Source: Geothermobacter hydrogeniphilus (GTDB lineage: Bacteria > Desulfobacterota > Desulfuromonadia > Desulfuromonadales > Geothermobacteraceae). From it: a DNA stretch of 24,000 bases. Below, piece after piece: positions 3,118 to 19,276 of this stretch; the stretch's first letter is position 1; each line of letters opens with the position of its first letter. The notes beneath the pieces were generated by a model. That model was not told where the DNA came from and did not search any database. It worked only from the letters and a program-made list of their open reading frames with translations. The stretch spans positions 12,974-36,973 of the forward strand of contig NZ_PPFX01000035.1 in assembly GCF_002898515.1 (NCBI RefSeq). Direction: 5' to 3'. The translations under genes and the position numbers were made by a program.

Positions 3118-3243
3118 CTGTTCTTCTCCTTGCTGGTTGTGGGTAAGACGCGATAAAATTCTTTTCACGCTGGGTGTCGACTGCGGCTTCCGGGGTCGCC
3201 TGGGTTTCTCTTCGCCCCCCCCCCGCAAAACCGTTGCCTCTTT

Positions 3244-3271
3244 CTTATATCACCCATTAAGCACACGTCAA
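3244..3271 (-). promoter_or_regulatory. Candidate sigma70 promoter of rbr
   Basis: Minus strand reads TTGACG (3271-3266), a 16-nt spacer, then TGaTATAAG (extended -10, hexamer 3249-3244). This lies about 125 nt upstream of the rbr ATG. Confidence 0.45.
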
Positions 3272-3283
3272 TATCTATAGATA
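3272..3283. promoter_or_regulatory. Perfect 12-bp AT-rich palindrome TATCTATAGATA abutting the -35 box; candidate PerR/Fur-family operator
   Basis: The sequence is self-complementary. It sits directly upstream of TTGACG in the perR-rbr intergenic region and is the only AT-rich palindrome there. Confidence 0.4.
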
Positions 3284-3404
3284 ACCATTTTCCATGGCAG
3301 CCCCAAAAACATCTCCAAGAGACTGTCGGACTATTCAGGCTGATGCAATAATTTGGAGCGTTGAGACCCGTTTTTCGCTTCAGTCCGGCAAGCCAGACCG
3401 GCTG

Positions 3405-3944: not shown

Positions 3945-5606
<1,662 letters not shown>

Positions 5607-5624
5607 GGGTTCAACCTCCAGGGG

Positions 5625-6200
5625 TCAGAAGGGCGCGTAGACGACGGCCAGAATCCGGGCCGGTCCCGACAGGGCGTGGACGTCATGGGGAACGATGGAA
5701 TCGTAATAGATGCTCTCCCCGGCTTCCAGCTTATAACGGGTCTGGCCGTAGCTGATCTCGATACAGCCGTCGAGGACATAAAGAAACTCCTCCCCCTCGT
5801 GGGACGAGAGGGGAGCGGCAGCACCCTCGCGCGGCTGGACATCAATCACAAACGGTTCCATGTGGCGGTCTTTTTTACCCGCCCCGAGAGCGTAGAAGTC
5901 GAGCGCGCTCTGTCGTGCCGACGGGTCCTTGCCCGAGAAGCGGATGACGTTGGCCGACTCCCCGTTCTTCACCAGTGCCGGACCATCGTGCGGCTCATCG
6001 TCGAGCAGGGTGCCGAGCCGGACTCCGAGGGCCCGGGCGATCGTCATCAACGGCGTCAGGGACGGAACCAGCTCTCCCGCCTCGATGCGGTTGAGAAGGT
6101 CGACATGACACTGGCTCTGTTCGGCCAGCTGTTCGATGGACAGCTCCCGCGTTTCACGCAAGCGGCGGAGCCGGTCACCAAGTTTATTGGCGGCATACAT
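5625..6200 (-). CDS. XRE-family HTH transcriptional regulator with C-terminal cupin domain (copy 1)
   Basis: N-terminal HTH_3 pattern ([37 protein letters not shown]) and a cupin core ([19 protein letters not shown]...[12 protein letters not shown]). AAGGAGG RBS. Stops 18 nt before the acyl-CoA synthetase start. Confidence 0.85.
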
Positions 6201-6386
6201 GGGTTAATCCTCCTTTAACATCAACGCCTTACAGGGTTGGAGACGATTGGAACGAGCCGCAGGTTAGCACATCTGCAGGGCGGGGCAAAGGGGACAGGGG
6301 ATTGTGTCAAACAAGAAAAGCCCCCGGGCTCTGAACAAGCACCGGAGGCAGAGGATGAGGGAGTGCGATTTCTCCGGAGAGCAGTC

Positions 6387-7292
6387 TCAGTCCCCTGTCG
6401 GGGCGGAGCGCAGGGTTTCCCAATGCCGTCGGATGGCATCCCGTAACACCATCGCGGTCACGCCCGATTTGCGGAAACGACCCTGCATCGCCAGGTATTC
6501 CGCCAGTGCCAGGTCGGAGAAGTCAGGCTCGACATTGATCGTCATCTGCCGCCCGTCCCGGATCTCCAGAACCGGGAAAAGCCCGGAACGAACCGCCAGG
6601 CGGATCAGCTGGATCCCGTGAGAAGGTTCCGATTTCCAACCGGTGGGACAGGGGGAAAGGATGTGCAGGAAACGGAAGCCGCGCATCTCAAGCGCCAGCC
6701 GCAGCTTGCACAGGGTATCCTCGGGGTGAGCCAGGGAAACGCTCGCCGCGTAAGGAATGCGGTGCGCCGCCATGATCGCCAGGATCTCTTTCTTCACCTC
6801 CGGCTTGCCGGTCGGGGTACTGGTGGTCGCCGCCCCCAGCGGAGTGGCCGAGGAGCGCTGACCGCCGGTGTTGCCGTAGATTTCATTGTCGTAACAGATG
6901 TAGAGGATATCCTCGTTGCGCTCGGCGGCGGCCGAGAGCGCGCCCATGCCGATATCGTAGGTACCGCCGTCTCCGGCCCAGCAGATCACCCGGGTCTCTT
7001 CGCCGTTGAGGGCGGCGACCCGCGCCAGCCCGCCGGCGACTGCCGCGCTGCAGGCGAAGGTCGACATCACCACCGGAGCGCCGAAGGACGAAAAAGGATA
7101 ATTGCCGACCGCGACCGCGCCGCAGCAGGCCGGGACCACCAGCTGCACCGGTTGTCCGGCAATGGCACGACTGAGCATCTGCAGCGCGATCGACATGCCG
7201 CAACCGCCGCAGTTGGTGTTACCGGGACGCAGCAGCGGCTTTTTCCGGTCATGTTCGGTTTGTGCCATACCGTTCAGCGCCGGTTCGTTCAT
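6387..7292 (-). CDS. 2-oxoacid:ferredoxin oxidoreductase, beta (TPP-binding) subunit, Por/Vor type
   Basis: Contains GNTNCGGCGMSIA, GDGGTYDIGMGALSAAAERNEDILYICYDNEIYGNTGGQRSSATP and FLHILSPCPTGW. The ATG at 7290-7292 overlaps the alpha-subunit stop (ATGA). Confidence 0.88.
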   Translation of the reverse strand: MNEPALNGMAQTEHDRKKPLLRPGNTNCGGCGMSIALQMLSRAIAGQPVQLVVPACCGAVAVGNYPFSSFGAPVVMSTFACSAAVAGGLARVAALNGEETRVICWAGDGGTYDIGMGALSAAAERNEDILYICYDNEIYGNTGGQRSSATPLGAATTSTPTGKPEVKKEILAIMAAHRIPYAASVSLAHPEDTLCKLRLALEMRGFRFLHILSPCPTGWKSEPSHGIQLIRLAVRSGLFPVLEIRDGRQMTINVEPDFSDLALAEYLAMQGRFRKSGVTAMVLRDAIRRHWETLRSAPTGD

Positions 7293-8452
7293 ACCCCAAC
7301 CTCCATGATCATCGGTTCGCCGGCCGACTCCCGGCCGCGCAGGTCGTCGACCAGCTGCTCGATATGTTCGGGACGGACATCGCCGCCACCGAGGCCGAGC
7401 ATATAGTTCTGTACCAGGGTTTCGGCACCGGCGCAGGTCCGGCATTCCCCCCAGAGTACGCCGCCGAATCCGGGGCTGATATCCCGGTCGAGAACCGCCA
7501 CCCGGCGGGCACGCGCCAGCTTTTCCCGCAGCAGCCGCGCCGGAAACGGACGCAGCAGGCGGATGCGCAGGGAGCCGACCTTCACGCCCCGCTCCCGCAG
7601 GCGGTCAACACTCCGTTCAACGGTGCCGGCAAGGGTGCCCATCGACAGGATCAGCAGCTCGGCATCCTCATCGCGATACCCGACCAGCGGCCCTGGCAGC
7701 TCGCGCCCGAAGATTTCGGCGAACTCCCGCTGCAGTTCGGGATAGATGTTCAGGGCCTCGCCCATCGCCTGGTGATGCCGGCGACGCAGAACCTCGGTCT
7801 GCTGCGGCAGGATCACCGAGCCGAGGGCGTGCGGCTGGTCGGCAAGACGATGCGACACGGACAGGGGGGGGAGAAAGCGGTCGACCTGCTCCTGGGCGGG
7901 AATCAGCGTCTGCGCCATGGTATGGGAAAGGACGAAACCGTCCTGGCAGACCATCACCGGCAGCATCACTCGCGCATCTTCGCCAAGACGATAGGCAAAG
8001 AGAATGGTGTCGAGGACTTCCTGGTTGTCAGCACAGTAGAACTGCAGCCAGCCGGAATCGCGCAGCAGCAGGCTGTCGCCATGATCGGCCCAGATATTCC
8101 AGGGCGGCCCCAGGGTACGGTTGGCCACCATCATCACCATCGGCAGCCGCAACAGAGCGGCGGCCACGACATTCTCGGCCATGTAGGCGAGGCCGTTGGA
8201 GGAGGTGGCGGTGAAGGAACGGGCCCCGCCGGCGACACTGCCGATACAGACCGCCATGGCACTGTGCTCCCCTTCGACCCGCACCACCTGCCCCTTTTCG
8301 ATCTCCTGAGCACAGAGCAGTTCCATACATTCAGTCGACGGAGTAATCGGGTAGACACCGCTGCAGAAACCGCGGCCTTTTCGATTGGCGCGCGCCGCCA
8401 GGGTCGCGGCATGGGCGGCGGCATGGTTGGCGCTGATCAGTTCGCTGCGCAT
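7289..8452 (-). CDS. 2-oxoacid:ferredoxin oxidoreductase, alpha subunit
   Basis: Contains ISANHAAAHAA, YPITPSTE, EGEHSAMAVCIGSVAGGARSFTATSSNGLAYM and MVMMVANR. ATG at 8450-8452 overlaps the upstream fusion gene by 16 nt. The track ORF's 53-aa extension lies inside that gene. Confidence 0.88.
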   Translation of the reverse strand: MRSELISANHAAAHAATLAARANRKGRGFCSGVYPITPSTECMELLCAQEIEKGQVVRVEGEHSAMAVCIGSVAGGARSFTATSSNGLAYMAENVVAAALLRLPMVMMVANRTLGPPWNIWADHGDSLLLRDSGWLQFYCADNQEVLDTILFAYRLGEDARVMLPVMVCQDGFVLSHTMAQTLIPAQEQVDRFLPPLSVSHRLADQPHALGSVILPQQTEVLRRRHHQAMGEALNIYPELQREFAEIFGRELPGPLVGYRDEDAELLILSMGTLAGTVERSVDRLRERGVKVGSLRIRLLRPFPARLLREKLARARRVAVLDRDISPGFGGVLWGECRTCAGAETLVQNYMLGLGGGDVRPEHIEQLVDDLRGRESAGEPMIMEVGV

Positions 8453-10797
8453 GACTCCCCCTTCCCGTCCAGGGCGGCGGCACGCAGGGCATGCCGCGGA
8501 CATTCGGCGGCACAGATACCGCACCCCTTGCACTGTTCCTCGTCGATGGCATACCGGGCACCATCCCGGCAGATAATCCCTTCCGGGCAATAAATCAGGC
8601 AGGTATCGCAACCGGTGCAGTGACCGCAGGAAAGACAGCGTTCAGCTTCGGAGGCATCAGGCAGACCCTGGTTGACCTCGCGACACTCCTGAAGCCGTCG
8701 TTCGACGGCCAGATGACGGTCAGCCGTCGGCGGGCGCGAAGCAAAATAGTCGAAACGGATCTCTTCGGCGGAAACGGCGGGAGACGAGGGCGGATCGATT
8801 TCCGACAGGGCTGCCGCCGGCCCTCCGGCCAACATGCGCAGCGCCGTGCGCCGGCCGTCACCGATGGCATGGGTCACGGTACCGGCGCCGGTCGAGAGGT
8901 CTCCGCAGGCATAGACCGGCAGCGGATCACCGGCCCGCTCAAAGCGGCCGTCACGAATCTGCCAATGGTCGGGCACCAGTTTCAAATCCGCCGATTGCCC
9001 GAGGCAGAGCAGCACATGGTCACAACGGATACGACTGCTGCGGTCGCTGACGATCGGACGGCAACGGCCATCGGCCTCGACCGGACCGAGATCAACCTCG
9101 GCCAATTCAACAGCTTCGACCCGGCCATCGCCGAGATAGGCGCGCGGCTGGCAGAAAAGCTGCAGTTCGACACCTTCTTCCAGTGCCTCCTCGACTTCAC
9201 CGGCGATGGCCGGCATCTCTTCCCGCCCGCGACGGTAAACAAGAGAGACCCGCCGGGCACCGTTGCGCAGCGCGGTACGGGCGGCATCAATGGCCGAGTT
9301 GCCGCCACCGATCACCAGCACATGACCTTCGAGGCGGACATTCCCTCCCTGCTTCGCCCGCCGCAGGTAATCGAGCCCCTGCTCGACACCTTCAAGATCC
9401 TCACCGGGACAGGCGGCGGATCGCCGGCAGTCCAACCCGGTCGCCAGCAGCAGACCGTCATGATTTTCCAGCAGGCGTTCAAGAGCGAAGGTATCCAACG
9501 TGTAGCCCGGTTGCACCTCAACACCGAGCAAAAGAATGCGAACGATATCCCGATCGAGATCCTCCGGCGGCAACCGGTAGCCGGGGATACCGCTGCGCAG
9601 CAGTCCGCCCAGTTCTCGGTCGCGTTCGTAGATGGTCACCCAGTGACCTTCGAGAGCGAGAGTGTAAGCCGCGCTCAAACCCGCCGGACCGCTGCCGACC
9701 ACGGCGAAGGATTTTCTCTGCCCCTGCTGTTTCGGCTGCAGCAGCAGATCCTGCTGGTGATCACCGATCCAACGTTCGAGACCACGGATATTGACCGCGC
9801 CGTCATAACCATCACGGTTGCAACGGCTCATACAGGGAGCGGGACAGACCCGGCCGCAGACCGACGGCAGCGGCTGGGTCTGCTGCAGGATGCGGGCGGC
9901 AGCTTCAACCCCGTCGTTTTTCAGCGCCTGGATGAAGCCGACCACGTCGTTGCCGGCCGGGCAACCGACATTGCAGGGCGCCGGGCGTTCCTCGTAAATG
10001 ACTTTCTGGGTCCGCCAGGAACCGGTCTTGAGCGGCATCGGCAGATCGACAAACTGTTCGGTCAGCGGCGTGACGCGACCGCTCTGCCGCATGACAACCG
10101 GCTCGGCATGCTCCTTCCGGCAAAAGGTTTCGCGGATTTCAACCGTGCGGAAGGCTTCCTGCGCCGCGTCCAGGTCAGCCTCGAGCCCGAGGTCCCGGTA
10201 GGCCTGCTCCACGTCAACCATTTTCAGCCCGATGAAACGGGCATAGGCGCCGATCATGGTGGTATTGACGATGACCACCGAGCGGGTGCCGATCTTGTGC
10301 CTGCGAGCAATCGCCGTGGCATCGACGACTGCCACCCGGTACTCGGCAAAGAGGGGGTCAAGCCCCGTCAGTCCGCAACCACTGTTGAGCAGCACCAATC
10401 CGCCCGGGTCCAGGCCGTCGAGCAGCTCAGCATTGACCAGCCCGTCATCGAGAATCAGCAGTTGGTCCGGTCGGTAGACCTTGTTGCGGTTGCGCACCGG
10501 TTTCGCACTGACCCGGGTGTAGGCCCGCACCGGGGCACCGGAACGCTCGGAGGCATAATCACCGAAAGTCTGGACATAACGATTCTGTCCGGCGAACAGA
10601 GCGGCGATCAACTTGGCGCAGGTCACACCCCCCTGCCCGCCGCGACCGTGGACACGGATTTCAAGTTCTGCCGGAACGGCGGCAGCGGCCTGGCGGTCGG
10701 CAGGCCCTTCCCCGACAGCGGCCGGGGAGATATGGGACGGCGGAGAGATGTCGCGGGCAATGCGACTGATTGGCGATTGCGGACTGGATTGACCCAT
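8437..10797 (-). CDS. Fusion protein: OFOR gamma domain + GltD-like Fe-S/FAD/NAD(P) oxidoreductase + OFOR delta-type 2x[4Fe-4S] ferredoxin
   Basis: N-terminus: IRVHGRGGQGGVTCAKLIA...GDYASERSGAP (POR gamma). Middle: CNVGCPAGNDV...PLPSVCGRVCPAPC (GltD Fe-S region), VVGSGPAGLSAA (FAD GxGxxG) and VIGGGNSAIDAA (NAD(P) GxGxxA). C-terminus: CTGCDTCLIYCP and CKGCGICAAECP. I prefer the start at ATG 10795-10797 (AAGGA 8 nt upstream), because the sigma54 promoter lies inside the longer 10893 version. Confidence 0.85.
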   Translation of the reverse strand: MGQSSPQSPISRIARDISPPSHISPAAVGEGPADRQAAAAVPAELEIRVHGRGGQGGVTCAKLIAALFAGQNRYVQTFGDYASERSGAPVRAYTRVSAKPVRNRNKVYRPDQLLILDDGLVNAELLDGLDPGGLVLLNSGCGLTGLDPLFAEYRVAVVDATAIARRHKIGTRSVVIVNTTMIGAYARFIGLKMVDVEQAYRDLGLEADLDAAQEAFRTVEIRETFCRKEHAEPVVMRQSGRVTPLTEQFVDLPMPLKTGSWRTQKVIYEERPAPCNVGCPAGNDVVGFIQALKNDGVEAAARILQQTQPLPSVCGRVCPAPCMSRCNRDGYDGAVNIRGLERWIGDHQQDLLLQPKQQGQRKSFAVVGSGPAGLSAAYTLALEGHWVTIYERDRELGGLLRSGIPGYRLPPEDLDRDIVRILLLGVEVQPGYTLDTFALERLLENHDGLLLATGLDCRRSAACPGEDLEGVEQGLDYLRRAKQGGNVRLEGHVLVIGGGNSAIDAARTALRNGARRVSLVYRRGREEMPAIAGEVEEALEEGVELQLFCQPRAYLGDGRVEAVELAEVDLGPVEADGRCRPIVSDRSSRIRCDHVLLCLGQSADLKLVPDHWQIRDGRFERAGDPLPVYACGDLSTGAGTVTHAIGDGRRTALRMLAGGPAAALSEIDPPSSPAVSAEEIRFDYFASRPPTADRHLAVERRLQECREVNQGLPDASEAERCLSCGHCTGCDTCLIYCPEGIICRDGARYAIDEEQCKGCGICAAECPRHALRAAALDGKGESCAAN

Positions 10798-10855
10798 GGC
10801 TCTGATCCTTGGTGGTGGAATATGGCCGACACCGGGGCGGCCAATCCCTGTCAAG

Positions 10856-10871
10856 AGCAAGCGGCCTGCCA
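10856..10871 (-). promoter_or_regulatory. Sigma54 (-24/-12) promoter of the oxidoreductase operon
   Basis: Minus strand reads cTGGCAGgccgcTTGCTc. It has the exact GG-N10-GC spacing of the TGGCAC-N5-TTGCW consensus. It lies about 60 nt upstream of ATG 10797. Confidence 0.65.
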
Positions 10872-11032
10872 GAACCGGATGAATCTCCCGCAATTTTATA
10901 ATTTTGTTCTATTTTCCTCCTGAATGAATGCAACCAATTGAATTCACGTAGATATATCTGGAGGAAAAACCCATTGAACCGGGCTTGAAGGCTGCCGGGG
11001 GAGGACGGAACCACACATCTTGATCGGCCCTG

Positions 11033-11050
11033 TGGAAACCGGGGATTCCA
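11033..11050. promoter_or_regulatory. Candidate enhancer (UAS) box 1: TGGAA-N8-TTCCA
   Basis: TGGAAACCGGGGATTCCA, about 165 bp upstream of the -24/-12 element. Confidence 0.5.
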
Positions 11051-11102
11051 AAATTTGAGACGGAGAGAGTCAAACGGCTGAAAGCAGGGGCTGAAGAGAG
11101 AT

Positions 11103-11120
11103 TGGAACCGATCGCTTCCG
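11103..11120. promoter_or_regulatory. Candidate enhancer (UAS) box 2: TGGAA-N8-TTCCg
   Basis: TGGAACCGATCGCTTCCG. Its centre is 19 bp from that of box 3. Confidence 0.45.
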
Positions 11121-11121
11121 C

Positions 11122-11139
11122 TGGAAACTTTTAATTCCA
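11122..11139. promoter_or_regulatory. Candidate enhancer (UAS) box 3: TGGAA-N8-TTCCA
   Basis: TGGAAACTTTTAATTCCA. Confidence 0.5.
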
Positions 11140-11178
11140 GAAAAGCATGGGAATCGCGGGAGAATGCCCGAGGATTCC
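11139..11178 (-). terminator. Possible intrinsic terminator after the sigma54 activator gene
   Basis: Interrupted stem GGAATC-g-CGGG (11150-11160) / CCCG-ag-GATTCC (11167-11178). On the minus strand it is followed by CATGCTTTTCTGG. Confidence 0.3.
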
Positions 11179-11232
11179 ATAATCCCTATGGCTCTATGTC
11201 TCCTCCATGGCATCCTGCCGCCTTGTCGGGCG

Positions 11233-12798
11233 TCATCCCATCCCGTACTTTTTCAGCTTTTTCAGCAGCCCGGTATGTGACAGCCCCAGCATTTTCGCCG
11301 CCTGGCGTTTGCTCGGTGCCAGTTGCAACGCCTCGGCGATCACCCGTCGTTCCAGTTGTTCGACCTGCCCGGCCAGAGATGTGCCGCCGGCTGCTGCCGC
11401 GACACCATCCGGTCGGCTGATCTCAAAACTGAAACGAATACTCTCGGCATCGATCTCCTCGCGACCGCTGAGTATCGCCGCCCGTTCGATGACGTTACGC
11501 AATTCGCGCACGTTGCCCGGCCAGTGATGACTCCTGAGCTTGGCCAGCGCCCCCGCGGTCAACTGCCGGGCACGCAGACCGAGACGAGCATTGACCTGGA
11601 AGAGAAAATGCCCGGCGAGCAGCGGGATGTCCTCAAGACGTTCGCGCAGAGGCGGGATATGCAGTGGAAAAAGGTTGACCCGGTAGTAGAGGTCTTCACG
11701 AAAACGGCCTTGCCTGACCAGCTGTTCGAGGTCACGGTTGGTGGCGGTGACCACCCGGGCGTTGACGGTAATCTCCTCGTTGCTGCCGATGCGTCGCAGC
11801 TTGCCGTCCTGGATCACCCTCAGCATTTTCGCCTGCAGGGCCGCCGGCATTTCGGCGATCTCATCGAGAAAGATGGTACCACTTTTCGCCGTCTCGAACA
11901 GTCCCGCGCGACCCTCCTTTTTTGCCCCCGAGAAAGCTCCGCCGACATAACCGAACAGTTCACTCTCCAGCAGGTTCTCCGGCAGGGCGGCGCAGTTGAC
12001 CGGGACAAACGGACCACGGCAGCCGCTGGCCACATGAATGGCGCTGGCAAACAGCTCCTTGCCGGTGCCGCTCTCACCGCGAATCGAGACGATGCCGTCA
12101 GTCGGCGCGACCTTCTCGGCGAAGGCGATCGCCTGCCGCAACGCTGGACTCTGGCCGACCATGTCATCAAAGGTCACCTGCGGTTCACCGGCCACCGCGC
12201 TGGCGACCTCGTGCAGACCCTTGATATCCCGCAGGACTTCGACCGCTCCGACGATGCGTCCTTTCGAGTCGCGAATCACCTGGCTGCTGGCCAAAAACCG
12301 GGCGCGGCGATTGCCGTGGGAAATGCTGCGCTTGACGTTGTGATAGGTCCGGCCGTCAAGACAGGAGAGCAGACTGGTGTCGGGAAAATCGAGATCCCGC
12401 AAGTTGCGGCCGACCAGCTCCCGGTCGGTGAGCCCGAGCATGCCGCGGGCCACCCGGTTGATGGTGGTCAGCTCTCCTTCCTCGTTGATCGACAGGATAC
12501 CGTCGCTGACACTGTCGAGGACCACCTTGAAACGTTTTTCCCGTCGTTCCTGCGGCATGGTACGGATCGAAACGACACTGAGAATATTGGGAATGGCCTC
12601 AAGGGAGGAGAGAATCGCCTCCTGGAGAGGCGATTGCGGACCGGTTTCGAGATCAAGATAGACGAAAGTCGCGCCGTCACGCTTCTCGACTTCCATGGCG
12701 AGAATGTTCAGGTCCTTGTCGGCCAGGACAACCGCGATCTGCGCCATCGCCCCGACCCGGTCGATGACCTGGAATTTCAGTTTTATATTGGCCGCCAT
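11233..12798 (-). CDS. Sigma54-dependent transcriptional activator, TyrR/PhhR-like architecture (ACT-PAS-AAA+-HTH)
   Basis: The N-terminus (VIDRVGAMAQIAVVLADKDLNILAMEVE...FVYLDLE...SIRTMPQERREK) parallels the E. coli TyrR ACT domain and its linker. PAS region: VLDSVSDGILSINEEG. AAA+ domain: GESGTGKE, ESELFGYVGGAFSGA (GAFTGA loop retained) and REDLYYRLN. C-terminal HTH: AAKMLGLSHTGLLKKLKKYG. Confidence 0.88.
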   Translation of the reverse strand: MAANIKLKFQVIDRVGAMAQIAVVLADKDLNILAMEVEKRDGATFVYLDLETGPQSPLQEAILSSLEAIPNILSVVSIRTMPQERREKRFKVVLDSVSDGILSINEEGELTTINRVARGMLGLTDRELVGRNLRDLDFPDTSLLSCLDGRTYHNVKRSISHGNRRARFLASSQVIRDSKGRIVGAVEVLRDIKGLHEVASAVAGEPQVTFDDMVGQSPALRQAIAFAEKVAPTDGIVSIRGESGTGKELFASAIHVASGCRGPFVPVNCAALPENLLESELFGYVGGAFSGAKKEGRAGLFETAKSGTIFLDEIAEMPAALQAKMLRVIQDGKLRRIGSNEEITVNARVVTATNRDLEQLVRQGRFREDLYYRVNLFPLHIPPLRERLEDIPLLAGHFLFQVNARLGLRARQLTAGALAKLRSHHWPGNVRELRNVIERAAILSGREEIDAESIRFSFEISRPDGVAAAAGGTSLAGQVEQLERRVIAEALQLAPSKRQAAKMLGLSHTGLLKKLKKYGMG

Positions 12799-12799
12799 G

Positions 12800-13390
12800 C
12801 TAGAAAATCAGCATCTCCTCGCGCGCATAGATCACCGCGAACAGGGTCGCCGGCCGGTCGCCATGGCAGGAAACGACATGCGGCAAGGTGGAATCATAGT
12901 AGATCGAATCGCCGGGATTGAGAATATCGGTGTGGCCGGAGAGGTTGACCTCGACCTGTCCTTCGAGAACGAACAGAATCTCCTCGCCAACATGCCGGTT
13001 CGGTTCCGGCTTGAAGCTCTCGTCGGGGGTGAGGGTTACCAGAAACGGTTCCATGTGACGGTTCTGTTTCTTGTAGCCGAGGGACTGGTAACTGTATCCG
13101 GCACTGGACCCGCCGCTGGAATCGAAACGGGTCACCATTTTACGGTCGTCACTACGGACAATGCAGAAGGGGGAATCGCCACTGTCACCGAACAGATCCC
13201 CGACGGAGACCTTGAGGACATTGGCCAGGCTGACGATATGCCCCAGGGGAGGTGTGACAGAACCCTCTTCAATCGCGTTCAGGGTGGTTTCCGGAAGATC
13301 GGTTTTCGCGGCGACATCGGCCATCGACATCCCCTGCCTGGTTCGCAGTTTCCTGATTTTCTCACCGATAGCGCCTTGTTGCTCAGACAT
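12800..13390 (-). CDS. XRE-family HTH transcriptional regulator with C-terminal cupin domain (copy 2)
   Basis: HTH (IGEKIRKLRTRQGMSMADVAAKTDLPETTLNAIEEG) and cupin (HVGEEILFVLEGQVEV...GDSIYYDSTLPH). Shares RHMEPF, GEE.L.VL.G and SIYYDS..PH with 5625..6200. The stop is 1 nt from the activator ATG. AAGGAGG RBS. Confidence 0.85.
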   Translation of the reverse strand: MSEQQGAIGEKIRKLRTRQGMSMADVAAKTDLPETTLNAIEEGSVTPPLGHIVSLANVLKVSVGDLFGDSGDSPFCIVRSDDRKMVTRFDSSGGSSAGYSYQSLGYKKQNRHMEPFLVTLTPDESFKPEPNRHVGEEILFVLEGQVEVNLSGHTDILNPGDSIYYDSTLPHVVSCHGDRPATLFAVIYAREEMLIF

Positions 13391-16076: not shown

Positions 16077-17192
16077 TCATTCCTTCCACATCGCCAGCGC
16101 CTCGGCCGCCGTCACCTTGCTTAAGGGCTGGCGCGGTTGCGGTGGCCGGCCGTCGACCCAGGCGGGAAAGAGGGCCTCGGTGCGCCGCTCCCGCGGATAG
16201 ATCTGCACCAGGCCCCGCTGCCGGACATGGGGATGGTCGGGGACCTCGTGCTGTTCCAGAACCGGCTCGAAGCAGCAATCGACCTTGACGAACAGCGACC
16301 GCCAATGCGCCAGCGTCTCGCCGGCGAACAGGGCGGCGACCTCGCCGATCAGCTCGGTCTGCGGCAACGGCTGCCGCTGACGCCCAATCCAGTCCGGTCG
16401 CTCGACCGTCTCGCAGAAACGACGCCAGAACTTTTCCTCGATCGCCCCCAGGGCGACAAACCTGTCATCCGCAGTACGGTAGATCTGGTAGCAGGCCGCC
16501 CCGCCGGTCAGCAGATCCCGACCGCGTCCGAAGGTCTCGCCGGGACGGCCGGCGGCGGTCAGACCGAAGGACTGCCAGGAGAGAGCCATCTCGAACAGGC
16601 TGACATCGATGAACGCCCCACGACCGGTCCGACCGCGACGCAGCAGAGCGGCGAGAATGGTGGTGGCCGCCTGCTTGCCGGCGGCGTAATCACAGATCGG
16701 CGGAAAGGGAATGACTGGCGTCTGCGCGGTGCCGGTCAGGCTGAGCATGCCGCTCATGGCGAGATAGGTCAGGTCGTGCCCGGCGCGCTCGCGACAGGGG
16801 CCGCTCTGACCGAAGCCTGAAAGGGCGCAATGGACCAGGGAGGAGTTGAGCTGCTCAAGGCGCTCACGCCCGAAGCCGAGGCGCTCCAGCACGCCCGGCC
16901 GGTAGGATTCCAGCAGCACGTCGGCCACCCGCACCAGTTCGGCCAGGGACTCCCGCCCCACCGGCGTCTTGAGATCAAGCTCGGCCACCGCCTTACCGGC
17001 ATTGACCTGCTTGTAGAAGGGAGAAACCCCGTCACCGTCGGCCAGGATAAAAGACCGCATCGGGTCACCGGCCGGCGGCTCGACCTTCAGCACCTCGGCG
17101 CCGAGATCTCCGAGCAACTGGGTGGCGAAAGGACCGGGCAGGTACTGGCTGAGGTCGAGAACCCGGATCCCGGTGAGACAATCAGAAAGCAT
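16077..17192 (-). CDS. Family III CoA-transferase (CaiB/BaiF/Frc/racemase family)
   Basis: Contains GIRVLDLSQYLPGPFATQLLGDLGAEVLKVEPPAGDPMR, ESYRPGVLERLGFG and GHDLTYLAMSG. 371 aa. Confidence 0.88.
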   Translation of the reverse strand: MLSDCLTGIRVLDLSQYLPGPFATQLLGDLGAEVLKVEPPAGDPMRSFILADGDGVSPFYKQVNAGKAVAELDLKTPVGRESLAELVRVADVLLESYRPGVLERLGFGRERLEQLNSSLVHCALSGFGQSGPCRERAGHDLTYLAMSGMLSLTGTAQTPVIPFPPICDYAAGKQAATTILAALLRRGRTGRGAFIDVSLFEMALSWQSFGLTAAGRPGETFGRGRDLLTGGAACYQIYRTADDRFVALGAIEEKFWRRFCETVERPDWIGRQRQPLPQTELIGEVAALFAGETLAHWRSLFVKVDCCFEPVLEQHEVPDHPHVRQRGLVQIYPRERRTEALFPAWVDGRPPQPRQPLSKVTAAEALAMWKE

Positions 17193-17207
17193 CAGGCCGC
17201 CGCGAGC

Positions 17208-17765
17208 TCAGTCTTCAAGAGAGAACTCCCAGGCGCACCAGAACTCTTCCGGGTGGGCATCGGGCGGACAGGAGAGGCAGCGGGTCTGGATCCGCGGATC
17301 GATGGTGCGGGCGAACTCGCTGTACTCGACGATTCCCACCGACTTGCAGGGGAAGTCATCCAGCCCCCGGCGCTTGCGCGCCGACTGCACCCGGCAGTCG
17401 ACCATGCGGAACACCGCGCGGCTGTCACTGACCTCGATCGCCTGCTGCAGGTTGAGCCGCGCGTAGAGACGATGTTTGAGGCATTCAAGCAGCGCCGGGA
17501 TGCCGCCGCCCGGCTCGATCCCGAGCCGCGCCATGATCCGTTTGGCCTCGATGACGGTGAACTTCTCCCAGGCGGCCCGGTCGGCCTCGATCGCCACCTC
17601 CATGCCGTGGGTTTTCTCGATCGCCTGGAACCAGAGCCCGTCATGGGCCAGCCAGTTCTTGGCGTCGTCGATAATGATGGCGATCAGTTCCTCTTTGCTG
17701 AGCCGCTTGAGCAACTGGATGCCCTCATCGAAAGGTTCAATGGCGGTTTCGGTCTGGATGGACAT
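17208..17765 (-). CDS. Conserved hypothetical protein with Cys-rich C-terminus (about 185 aa)
   Basis: ATG at 17763-17765 with AAGGAG 7 nt upstream. Contains AKNWLAHDGLWFQAIE and the C-terminal VDC...FPC...RCLSCPPDAHPEEFWCAWEF. It resembles uncharacterised proteins of about 190 aa (possibly DUF6125 or ATC-hydrolase-like; the family call is from memory and unverified). Confidence 0.6.
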   Translation of the reverse strand: MSIQTETAIEPFDEGIQLLKRLSKEELIAIIIDDAKNWLAHDGLWFQAIEKTHGMEVAIEADRAAWEKFTVIEAKRIMARLGIEPGGGIPALLECLKHRLYARLNLQQAIEVSDSRAVFRMVDCRVQSARKRRGLDDFPCKSVGIVEYSEFARTIDPRIQTRCLSCPPDAHPEEFWCAWEFSLED

Positions 17766-17799
17766 GGGATCTCCTTTGGCAGAAAAGAAAAGCATTGGG

Positions 17800-17976
17800 C
17801 CGCCAAGACGCCAAGGACTCCAAGAAGGTCAAAACCTGCTTTACTGCAGAGACGGAGAGGAGCAGAGATCGGAGAGAAACCTGTTGGGGTTTATAAAACT
17901 CAAGCCAGAATTGGCTGAACTTTGCGTTCGCTCCCGCTCCGCGGCTCTCCGTTGAAAAGGTTTTCTTGGTGTCCTG
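17800..17976. repeat. Palindromic intergenic repeat, copy 1 (diverged); core 17841..17956
   Basis: Layout: CCAAGR-rich flank; TTACTGCAGAGacggagaggagcagagatcggagagaaa; AT-rich centre (TTTATAAAACTCAAGCC); pyrimidine arm ending CTCTCCGTTGAA; cttggtgtcctg flank. About 80% identical over 78 nt to the reverse complement of 19375..19452. Confidence 0.7.
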
Positions 17977-17989
17977 TTCACAAACATTC

Positions 17990-19225
17990 CTATTCAATCT
18001 CCCGCTGATCGTCAATCACCTTGCCGTCGTTGGGCAGGCTGCCGGGGGCGACGAATTCGACCTCGCCGCGCAGCTTGGTCAGCTCGCGGATCGAGTCGCG
18101 CAGGGCGGACGCCAATCCATCCGCGGCAACGGCGGATTCAGCCCGTAGCAGCATGTGGTCCTGGTCGTCCTGTCGGGTCACCACCAGCCGCCCGCGGCCG
18201 AGTTCCGGGTGGCGCTTGAGGATGGCGTCGACCTGCTGCGGATGCACGAACATGCCACGCACCTTGGTGGTCTGGTCGGCCCGCCCCAGCCAGCCCTTGA
18301 TGCGCAGATTGGTGCGGCCGCAGGGGCTGGCTCCCGGCAGGATGGCGGAAAGATCGCCGGTGGCGAAACGGATCAGCGGATAATCGGGATTGAGGCTGGT
18401 CACCACCACCTCGCCGACCTCCCCTGCCGGTACCGGGTCACCGCTGCCGGGGCGGACGATCTCGAGAACAATTCCCTCGTCGACGATCATCCCTTCCAGC
18501 GCCTCAGACTCGTAGGCGATCAGGCCGAGATCGGCGGTGGCGTAGCACTGGCGGACGCTGATGCCGCGCTGCGCCATCCCCTCACGCAGGCTCGGCGGCA
18601 GGTACTCACCGGAAACCAGCGCCGTCTCCAGGCACGACAGGTCGCTGCCGAGATCTGCAGCCTTGTCGAGAATCAGCTTCAGAAAGGACGGCGTACCAAC
18701 ATAGCCGCGCGGCCGGATGTGGCCCATCACCTGCACCTGCAGCTCGGTCTGGCCGACCCCGGCCGGCACCGTAGCACAGCCGAGCGCCCGGGCGCCGGAT
18801 TCGAACATCATCCCGGCCGGAGTGAAGTGGTAGGAGAAACAGTTGTGAATGATGTCGCCGGAACGGAACCCGGCGGCATACAGGGCGCGGGCAAAGCGCC
18901 AGAAATCGGGACGGGTCGAGCCGGGCTCGAAGATCGGCCCCGGGGAAGCGAAGATCTGGCACAACTCCGGCGGCTTAACCCCGGTCAGCCCGCCGAAGAC
19001 CGGCTGTCCCTGCTGACGCTCGATCAGCTCCGTCTTGCGCAGCAACGGCAGCTTCGCCAGCGCCGCGCGGTCGGTCACCTGCTGGCCGTCGACGCCCCGC
19101 AGCGTCTCGGCGAAGGCCGGGGCACTGCTTTTGGCGTGGTCGATCTGATCGGCCAGGCAGGCGAACAGGTCGGCTTCGCGCTGTTCGGGGGTGCGGGTTT
19201 CGAGGTTGTCGTAGTAGTCGGACAT
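17990..19225 (-). CDS. Phenylacetate-CoA ligase (PaaK)-like ANL-family protein with non-canonical P-loop
   Basis: Collinear with the PaaK family: FSYHFTPAGMMFESGA, VPAGVGQTELQ, GTPSFLKLIL, YATADLG, IRFATGDL and C-terminal NDGKVID. ASPGPIFEPG replaces the SSGTTGKP motif. I prefer the start at ATG 19223-19225 (GGAGA RBS) over 19237. Confidence 0.8.
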   Translation of the reverse strand: MSDYYDNLETRTPEQREADLFACLADQIDHAKSSAPAFAETLRGVDGQQVTDRAALAKLPLLRKTELIERQQGQPVFGGLTGVKPPELCQIFASPGPIFEPGSTRPDFWRFARALYAAGFRSGDIIHNCFSYHFTPAGMMFESGARALGCATVPAGVGQTELQVQVMGHIRPRGYVGTPSFLKLILDKAADLGSDLSCLETALVSGEYLPPSLREGMAQRGISVRQCYATADLGLIAYESEALEGMIVDEGIVLEIVRPGSGDPVPAGEVGEVVVTSLNPDYPLIRFATGDLSAILPGASPCGRTNLRIKGWLGRADQTTKVRGMFVHPQQVDAILKRHPELGRGRLVVTRQDDQDHMLLRAESAVAADGLASALRDSIRELTKLRGEVEFVAPGSLPNDGKVIDDQREIE

Positions 19226-19276
19226 GAGGGTCTCCATTGAAAAAATTCTTCAGGCCGCCCGCTCGCTCTGCTCGCT

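Follow-up and report, generated by a model that had tools for sequence, protein, structure and literature searches.

A gamma-GltD-delta fusion protein heading a three-gene 2-oxoacid oxidoreductase operon of Geothermobacter hydrogeniphilus, with NADP+ as its predicted electron acceptor

The stretch of DNA analysed here (24,000 nucleotides, hereafter the window) belongs to contig NZ_PPFX01000035.1 of Geothermobacter hydrogeniphilus (Desulfuromonadales), positions 12,974 to 36,973, and carries on its minus strand a three-gene operon of the 2-oxoacid:ferredoxin oxidoreductase (OFOR) type. The first gene encodes in one polypeptide the gamma subunit (PorG), the delta subunit (PorD) and a complete iron-sulfur flavoprotein resembling GltD and NfnB. 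The operon probably specifies a ferredoxin-independent, non-bifurcating, coenzyme A (CoA)-acylating 2-oxoacid:NADP+ oxidoreductase, in which delta would have been turned into an internal ferredoxin:NADP+ reductase. The architecture is widespread, generically annotated and, as far as could be found, uncharacterised.

The open reading frame (ORF) of the fused gene extends over 8437..10893 of the minus strand. The ATG at 10797, the sole in-frame start 3' of a sigma-54-type promoter, is preceded at 8 nt by AAGGA and gives a product of 786 amino acids (aa), which is 100% identical end to end to the G. hydrogeniphilus NCBI protein C2E25_13390, labelled 'hypothetical protein'. Pfam searches recognised the domains POR (gamma; 2.7e-24), Fer4_20 (1.2e-17), Pyr_redox_2 (6.5e-22) and a C-terminal Fer4 dicluster, located on the 818-aa ORF at 85-234, 305-381, 396-680 and 758-803, respectively; the residue numbers of the 786-aa protein, used from here on, are those of the ORF minus 32. 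An AlphaFold2 model of the protein was built on 120 homologues, and pLDDT (predicted local distance difference test) values are taken from it. The parts of the gene are as follows.

8437..10797, minus strand: fused gene, 786 aa plus stop, PorG - [PorD arm - GltD/NfnB-like flavoprotein - PorD core], assigned by domain searches, the NCBI identity and the AlphaFold2 model.
10666..10797, minus strand: N-terminal extension, aa 1-44, of low complexity and predicted to be disordered (pLDDT <50 for aa 1-38), unconserved in the alignment.
10132..10665, minus strand: gamma (PorG/POR) domain, aa 45-222 (POR 2.7e-24; PDB gamma chain 9bt4_E 1.2e-23).
10036..10131, minus strand: flexible linker between gamma and delta, aa 223-254 (pLDDT <50 for aa 227-254; unconserved).
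9976..10035, minus strand: N-terminal arm of delta (PorD), LKTGSWRTQKVIYEERPAP, aa 255-274, with T258, G259 and W261 invariant, aligning to solved delta arms.
9751..9975, minus strand: main part of Fer4_20, profile positions 30-109, aa 275-349 (PF14691 1.2e-17), with Cys 275/279/314/318/322/326 and Glu341.
8854..9708, minus strand: Rossmann domains for flavin adenine dinucleotide (FAD) and NADP(H), aa 364-648, with GSGPAG 368-373, R408, GGGNSA 497-502, YRR 521-523 and I531.
8626..8742, minus strand: N-terminal segment of Fer4_20 (profile positions 6-29) in its new place, aa 686-724, with 'EAERCLSC' (C721, C724) at its end, as indicated by the re-permutation test described below.
8482..8625, minus strand: dicluster core of delta, aa 725-772, CTGCDTCLIYCP and CKGCGICAAECP (Pfam Fer4 and Fer4_7; partial PorD_KorD match).

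Sequence searches of the PDB gave matches of NfnB, GltD and DPD to aa 270-655 (E 1e-31 to 1e-77), of PorG gamma chains to aa 45-216 and of Por and oxalate oxidoreductase delta to aa 725-772. The gamma domain passes the TIGR02175 PorC_KorC model (116.5 bits, cutoff 81.1), and the extension in front of it is common to the closest relatives only, most homologues aligning from about aa 45. The AlphaFold2 model had a mean pLDDT of 84.8 and a predicted template modelling score (pTM) of 0.72, disorder being confined to residues 1-38, the linker (227-254), the final 8 residues and one short loop. Foldseek matched it with the NfnA (large subunit) of NfnABC, StnC, NfnB, GltD and DPD, all with probability 1.00. 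An earlier note, made from the sequence alone, had described a gamma-GltD-delta fusion at the head of a por operon, whose middle region should contain intact FAD and NAD(P)H folds; the domain searches, the PDB matches and the AlphaFold2/Foldseek comparison agree on the former and support the latter. The Cys motifs quoted in that note were all recovered, namely CNVGCP (C275/C279), SVCGRVCPAPC...C (C314/C318/C322/C326) and both CxxCxxCxxxCP motifs (727-738 and 756-767), as were GSGPAG and GGGNSA; in an alignment of 120 members the key positions of all these motifs show little or no variation, and residue conservation below refers to this alignment.

Exactly 16 Cys residues of the Fe-S type are fully conserved, of which six (275, 279, 314, 318, 322, 326) lie in the main part of Fer4_20, two (721, 724) in its relocated segment and eight (727, 730, 733, 737; 756, 759, 762, 766) in the delta core. 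Glu341 is likewise invariant and aligns to Glu117 of Thermotoga maritima NfnB, which supplies the flavin-proximal cluster with its fourth ligand (PMC7596348). Sixteen Cys and one Glu make the ligand count right for four [4Fe-4S] clusters. Two further residues, C60 of the gamma domain and C592 of the flavin domain, are 98-99% conserved and stand outside the Fe-S motifs.

The earlier note had placed the flavoprotein module between gamma and delta; it was found to lie inside delta instead. The motif L-K-T-G-S-W-R (aa 255-261), invariant in the family, precedes Fer4_20, and the arm and the core taken together align end to end with the delta chain 9bt4_G of pyruvate:ferredoxin oxidoreductase (PFOR; 'KTGGWRNFRPVY..') and with chain 5c4i_B of oxalate oxidoreductase ('VTGNWRIQRPII..'). 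When the insert was excised in silico, by joining aa 240-271 directly to aa 724-786, the construct scored 65.4 bits on TIGR02179 PorD_KorD (cutoff 60.05; coverage 10-73 of 78), so that an above-cutoff PorD match was restored; the C-terminal part alone scored 46.9 bits (coverage 25-73) and the protein as encoded 41.3 bits, under the cutoff. These comparisons indicate that the flavin module was inserted within delta, between its N-terminal arm and its cluster core.

The Fer4_20 domain in turn is circularly permuted, its 'EAxRCxxC' segment following the flavin domain and abutting the first Cys motif of delta. When aa 686-724 ('...REVNQGL...EAERCLSC') were placed before aa 271-352 and scored on the Fer4_20 profile, 91.7 bits were obtained over positions 6-109, compared with 69.8 bits over positions 30-109 in the native order and 73.1 bits for a shuffled control. 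E707, G711, E717, R720, C721 and C724 of this segment are invariant. A counterpart of the extended N-terminus of NfnB is present but moved behind the flavin domain, the equivalent segment being the relocated aa 686-724. The first two cluster Cys of NfnB/GltD proteins are Cys42 and Cys45 in PfNfnI-B (PMC12221290), and these correspond to C721 and C724. Because C724 is two residues from C727, the first Cys of the first CxxCxxCxxxCP motif of delta, the outer GltD cluster and one delta cluster would be expected to be neighbours. In alignments of the closest solved relatives, 9n5u_A and 9bov_A, an 'EAxRCxxCG' motif also follows the flavin domain; the permuted layout is thus not exclusive to the por-linked family. 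The fused enzyme would provide a clean natural case of a domain insertion and a circular permutation joined at Fe-S ligand motifs.

The two genes which follow the fused gene encode the catalytic subunits, the second of them with a thiamine pyrophosphate (TPP) motif.

7289..8452, minus strand: porA-type alpha subunit, 387 aa (POR_N 1.6e-54, PFOR_II 9.6e-27, PDB 9bt4_B 4.1e-75).
6387..7292, minus strand: porB-type beta subunit, 301 aa, with the TPP motif GDGGTYD...YDNEIYGNTGGQ and the Cys motifs NCGGCG/PACC/SPCPTGW (TPP_enzyme_C 1.2e-20).

Alpha and beta have their nearest solved relatives in the alpha and beta chains of the four-subunit PFOR 9bt4, and the alignment of beta with PDB 9bt4_C (9.5e-51) retains the TPP-binding motif and the cluster Cys. 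Recomputation confirmed the gene overlaps reported earlier: alpha, whose ATG is at 8452, shares 16 nt with the fused gene, and the beta ATG at 7292 overlaps the alpha stop as ATGA. A separate delta gene was found neither in the window nor in the 84 loci described below, save for one extra delta-like match far upstream in L071, and the C-terminal dicluster domain must therefore be the delta of the complex.

The following mechanism is proposed. Alpha and beta, with TPP and CoA, would decarboxylate a 2-oxoacid, most likely pyruvate or a branched-chain one supplied by the neighbouring class IV aminotransferase. The two low-potential electrons would leave singly through the [4Fe-4S] cluster of beta and then the two clusters of delta, from which they would pass, not to free ferredoxin, but on to the pair of [4Fe-4S] clusters in the GltD/NfnB-type domain. 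FAD would gather both electrons and give a hydride to NADP+. The wire would be joined where the Cys motifs meet, with 'RCLSC', whose Cys pair completes the outer cluster of GltD, standing two residues from the first CxxCxxCxxxCP of delta. The 2-oxoacid/acyl-CoA couple lies at about -500 mV and NADP+ at -320 mV; the reaction would be downhill, irreversible, non-bifurcating and non-energy-conserving, with no need of ferredoxin. Domains, motifs, permutation, gene order and distribution are results of the sequence analysis; the path of the electrons, NADP+ as their acceptor and the substrate are predictions.

The choice of NADP+, the independence from ferredoxin and the lack of bifurcation are favoured because YRR is invariant, the position of Arg333 is occupied by Ile and no nfnA is present. 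In the NADPH site GGGNSA is found together with the invariant YRR 521-523, and YRR is a marker for NADP(H) in the related DsrL proteins (PMC7596348). Stand-alone NfnB-like proteins are simple ferredoxin:NADP+ reductases, and three markers separate them from bifurcating NfnB (PMC12221290); the position of PfNfnI-B Arg333, next to the FAD, is Ile531 here, invariant in the 120 members, and no nfnA-type gene occurs in the window or in the seven neighbourhoods that were read. The third marker is an extended N-terminus that packs on the cluster helices, whose counterpart here is the relocated segment. In StnC the GltD flavin serves as a non-bifurcating entry point for NADPH that feeds a [4Fe-4S] chain (PMC10482914). 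The wire from TPP to pyridine nucleotide suggested in the earlier note fits every sequence-level test run and is kept here as a prediction; the additional suggestion that both ferredoxin and NAD(P) might be served, as in NfnB/SudA-type homologues, is disfavoured by the missing nfnA and the invariant Ile at the Arg333 position.

Several observations weigh against this proposal. The proximal cluster keeps the Glu ligand of the NfnB type, a feature of bifurcating enzymes, and not the Lys of StnC; the delta clusters might be reached by an external ferredoxin; and YRR and Arg333 are correlative as markers and were adopted from other subfamilies. No characterised member of the family and no biochemical data were found in the open-access full-text literature, in which subscription reports may have been missed, and the earlier note likewise knew of no characterised example. 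Although common in databases, the architecture is mentioned there only in passing, by Loffler et al., who noticed such por-linked genes and set them aside by an exclusion criterion (PMC7596348), the sole mention found. A paper on Pelobacter carbinolicus deals with a three-gene OFOR, Pcar_1238-1240, a possible member of the family to which that paper assigns no substrate. As to the substrate, the best-scoring models were PorA models for alpha and a VorB-type model for beta, all with scores under the curated cutoffs, and the flanking genes vary by lineage (a TRAP transporter and an alcohol dehydrogenase; an MFS transporter; a 2-oxoacid dehydrogenase E1).

Among the alternatives, coupling of the Nfn type is considered unlikely. 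The GltD flavin would bifurcate or confurcate, and oxidation of the 2-oxoacid would reduce NADP+ together with external ferredoxin or another acceptor, conserving energy. The module is indeed homologous to NfnB, its proximal cluster has the same Glu ligand, and the closest solved relatives 9n5u_A, 9bov_A and 8oh5_C are subunits of bifurcating complexes. However, no gene for an NfnA or HydBC-type partner was found in any locus, the equivalent of Arg333 is an invariant Ile (the criterion of PMC12221290), and the GltD flavin of StnC, the closest solved relative, does not bifurcate (PMC10482914); moreover, both electrons of the TPP intermediate are already of low potential, and bifurcation would be unneeded. 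A stricter version, in which the Glu-ligated NfnB-like flavin is a true bifurcating or confurcating centre within an OFOR, with NADP+ reduction obligatorily coupled to that of a further acceptor (for instance the partner protomer, or external ferredoxin docked on the delta clusters), is very improbable, and would, if true, define a new class of energy-coupling OFOR.

The enzyme could also be an ordinary ferredoxin-dependent Por/Vor whose flavin module serves another acceptor (O2, a disulfide or polysulfide, as in SudA) or protects the clusters, which is thought to be quite unlikely. Sulfide dehydrogenase activity was formerly assigned to NfnB homologues, and many hosts are facultative aerobes (Noviherbaspirillum, Acetobacteraceae, Planctomycetota); yet the NADP(H) site is fully conserved, with GGGNxA and YRR invariant, and the flavin domain lacks a redox-active CxxC pair, C592 being its only conserved Cys.

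Operation in reverse, as a 2-oxoacid synthase fed by NADPH in which the flavin module supplies the OFOR for reductive carboxylation of acyl-CoA, has very little probability. OFORs are reversible in principle, GltD modules normally accept electrons from NADPH, and the family is present in some autotroph-rich groups; the reaction would, however, be uphill by about 180 mV with no coupling device encoded, and the context in the window is catabolic (aminotransferase, Liv-type transporter genes, acyl-CoA enzymes and an amino-acid-type activator).

The oxidative, NADP+-reducing enzyme proposed here belongs to a large family. The best 120 database homologues have 722-882 aa, one domain set and 50-78% identity. 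When one genome per species was scanned with two strict peptide patterns, 286 loci encoding a relative were found, of which 80 were kept; gene order was counted on 84 loci. Alpha and beta, in that order, come after the fused gene in all 84, the only exceptions being 4 loci cut by contig ends. The 80 kept loci come from the Desulfuromonadales, Desulfobulbaceae and Desulfomonilaceae, the Myxococcota (Anaeromyxobacter, Polyangiaceae, Archangiaceae), the Planctomycetota, the Alphaproteobacteria including Acetobacteraceae, and the Betaproteobacteria Noviherbaspirillum (including a complete chromosome), Propionivibrio dicarboxylicus DSM 5885 and Accumulibacter, as well as from Eisenbacteria, Krumholzibacteria and Chloroflexi. 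The possibility, raised in the earlier note itself, that an assembly or annotation artefact has joined three separate genes is negligible: although such errors do arise in the family, as the frameshifted P0122 described below attests, the same fusion occurs as one open frame in 84 independent loci from several phyla, complete genomes included, the NCBI protein is identical and the junction regions are conserved.

The gamma fusion appears to be secondary. When the delta::GltD portion was compared with 1.84 billion cluster representatives, the best 150 matches were mainly proteins of 540-610 aa that start about 25 residues before the arm, with about 17 gamma-fused forms of 700-800 aa scattered among them. 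The stand-alone delta::GltD proteins P0128, P0136 and P0142 all (3/3) lie in operons of the order porG / delta::GltD / porA / porB. On the NCBIfam model PRK12771 (cutoff 516) these relatives scored 555.7, 533.1 and 514.6 bits, P0128 and P0136 passing and P0142 falling 1.4 short; PRK12771 is also the best NCBIfam match of the window protein, at 445.8 bits over aa 251-772, below the cutoff. Since such unfused operons exist, the likely history would run from a gamma-delta-alpha-beta operon, through entry of a permuted GltD module into delta, to fusion of gamma in some lineages. P0122 (555 aa; L085, 4091-6668) was tried as a further unfused delta::GltD and rejected, as it is a frameshifted fused gene from a low-coverage long-read assembly, with the gamma domain in another frame immediately upstream. 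In one of the three operons of the unfused type, L088 (6684-8759), alpha and beta are themselves fused into a protein of 691 aa (POR_N + PFOR_II + TPP_enzyme_C), and fusion points thus vary.

The substrate is, as a best guess, pyruvate or an amino-acid-derived 2-oxoacid. The cutoffs of the equivalogs that define substrate classes (PorA/PorB, VorA/VorB, oxalate, phenylglyoxylate) were not reached (PorA_Arch 359.6 against 550, PRK11864 309.3 against 405). The genes around the operon in the window encode a class IV (branched-chain type) aminotransferase, an enoyl-CoA hydratase, a family III CoA-transferase, a PaaK-like ligase, an acyl-CoA synthetase and components of a Liv-type ABC transporter. 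Upstream of the aminotransferase cluster, at 16077-19237 on the minus strand, stands a conserved trio made up of a family III CoA-transferase, a 150-aa ORF and a PaaK-like AMP-ligase; the counterpart of the 150-aa ORF in locus L001 is called DUF6125.

Candidate elements for control of the operon lie on either side of it.

10856..10871, minus strand: candidate promoter of the sigma-54 (-24/-12) type, TGGCAGGCCGCTTGCT, about 60 nt before the ATG, found by motif search with one mismatch.
11233..12798, minus strand: sigma-54 activator of the ACT-PAS-AAA+ type, TyrR/PrdR-like, directly upstream (profile matches), adjacent also in the syntenic locus L001.
5625..6200, minus strand: XRE-HTH/cupin regulator downstream of beta (profile match), for which any role is suggested by linkage.

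The exact sigma-54 motif TGGCAC-N5-TTGC had no match, and TGGCAGGCCGCTTGCT was found once one mismatch was permitted; sites of the sigma-54 type resembling it precede the fused gene in three other Desulfuromonadales loci (L001, L007, L033). The ACT-PAS-AAA+ activator is likely to be the regulator of the por operon. An XRE-HTH/cupin gene follows beta in 41-42 of the 84 loci. Very long antisense ORFs on the plus strand stand opposite the real genes (8491-10923, 810 aa; 7262-8593, 443 aa; 4350-6218, 622 aa); they are typical of GC-rich DNA, and their regions are accounted for by the genes of the opposite strand.

Comparison with locus L001, from another assembly of G. hydrogeniphilus (GCA_002093115.1, NAAD01000020.1), showed an in-place replacement of the whole block 6219-12799 of the window. 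In the flanks DNA identity is 94-95% and protein identity 93-98.6%, whereas within the block the DNA is 66-76% identical and beta, alpha, the fused protein and the sigma-54 activator are 72, 64, 54 and 77.5% identical, respectively. The boundaries are sharp (6218/6455 and 12799/12800), and the GC content of the window is 0.635-0.666 over 7001-10000 and about 0.60 in the flanks. In L001 a second XRE-HTH/cupin gene stands directly 3' of beta (12716-13270), where about half of the family has such a gene; the corresponding part of the window (6201-6386) is without it, and only the flank-type copy at 5625-6200 is present. A catalase gene located between Fur and rubrerythrin in L001 (16413-17894) is absent from the window at about 3229-3404.

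OFORs are usually treated as ferredoxin enzymes of anaerobes. If the function proposed here is true, the oxidation of pyruvate and amino acids and the supply of NADPH would have to be modelled differently in many genomes, in which such genes are at present labelled only 'FAD-dependent oxidoreductase' or 'gamma subunit'. Among the hosts are facultative organisms, wastewater groups (Accumulibacter, Propionivibrio) and soil groups (Anaeromyxobacter, Noviherbaspirillum, Planctomycetota). Five loci of the Accumulibacter/Propionivibrio type (L011, L035, L038, L051, L061) place the fused enzyme in polyphosphate- and glycogen-accumulating wastewater lineages, and it is tempting to speculate that an NADPH-producing pyruvate oxidoreductase would bear on the anaerobic supply of reducing power in these bacteria. 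A compact cassette of three genes could also give NADPH straight from 2-oxoacids in engineered pathways.

Among known systems, PorGDAB/VorGDAB (solved as 9bt4) has the same gamma-delta-alpha-beta order, and its TPP and Cys motifs are kept here; homology to 9bt4 amounts to 4.1e-75 for alpha, 9.5e-51 for beta, 1.2e-23 for gamma and 2e-11 for the reconstituted delta. It differs in that delta here contains an insert of about 450 aa and forms one chain with gamma, and in that the predicted acceptor is NADP+ and not free ferredoxin. A precedent for gamma and delta in one polypeptide is the 'delta' chain of oxalate oxidoreductase (5c4i_B), which matches aa 71-275 and 725-772; this chain is without a flavin module and uses ferredoxin. 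In comparison with the uncharacterised PRK12771 'NAD(P)-binding protein', a stand-alone delta::GltD, the protein described here has porG fused to its N-terminus.

For the flavoprotein module, the closest solved structures are NfnB (NfnSL) and the GltD-like domains of StnC and of the NfnA of NfnABC (4ylf, 5jca, 8oh5, 9bov, 9n5u; 1e-77 to 1e-58). These belong to bifurcating transhydrogenases and have NfnA or HydBC-type partners, none of which is encoded here, and assignment to the bifurcating NfnB (NfnSL) was rejected, there being no upstream nfnA and Ile531 at the Arg333 position. The monofunctional NfnB-like ferredoxin:NADP+ oxidoreductases of the Cac_0764 type (PMC12221290, PMC9365771) share Fer4_20 and the FAD/NADP fold, have no NfnA and lack a conserved Arg333, and the predicted chemistry is alike, from reduced Fe-S clusters through FAD to NADP+. 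They are, however, free-standing enzymes with the normal domain order that use a diffusible ferredoxin, whereas here the attached delta would act as the 'ferredoxin' and Fer4_20 is permuted. DsrL is laid out in the same way, with an Fe-S domain, an FAD domain in which the NAD(P) domain is embedded, a linker and, at the C-terminus, a ferredoxin domain with two clusters, and the YRR marker is shared with DsrL-2. DsrL works with DsrAB, and the criteria for it are dsrAB in the genome and no linkage of the gene to por/vor genes (PMC7596348); the present gene is fused and linked to por genes, and membership was rejected by the second of these criteria.

An OFOR wired to a module that reduces pyridine nucleotide has been met elsewhere. 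The phenylglyoxylate:NAD+ oxidoreductase PadEFGHI of Azoarcus/Aromatoleum likewise combines a four-subunit-type OFOR with a pyridine-nucleotide-reducing flavoprotein, and the PadE/F/G/I models match gamma, delta, alpha and beta weakly. Its flavoprotein is a separate subunit of another lineage; the PadH model was not among the 25 best matches to the flavin domain, down to E = 4e-7, and membership was rejected on the scores (PadE 96 against 300, PadG 244 against 700, PadI 163 against 700, PadF 54 against 150). Pyruvate:NADP+ oxidoreductase (PNO) of Euglena and Cryptosporidium and the NADP+-reducing 2-oxoglutarate oxidoreductase of Azoarcus evansii are also OFORs wired to an NADP+-reducing flavin module. 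In PNO this is a C-terminal FMN/FAD module of the cytochrome-P450-reductase type on a single-chain PFOR, an unrelated flavoprotein at another point of attachment. The enzyme of G. hydrogeniphilus descends from an OFOR of the Por/Vor type and an iron-sulfur flavoprotein of the NfnB/DsrL kind.

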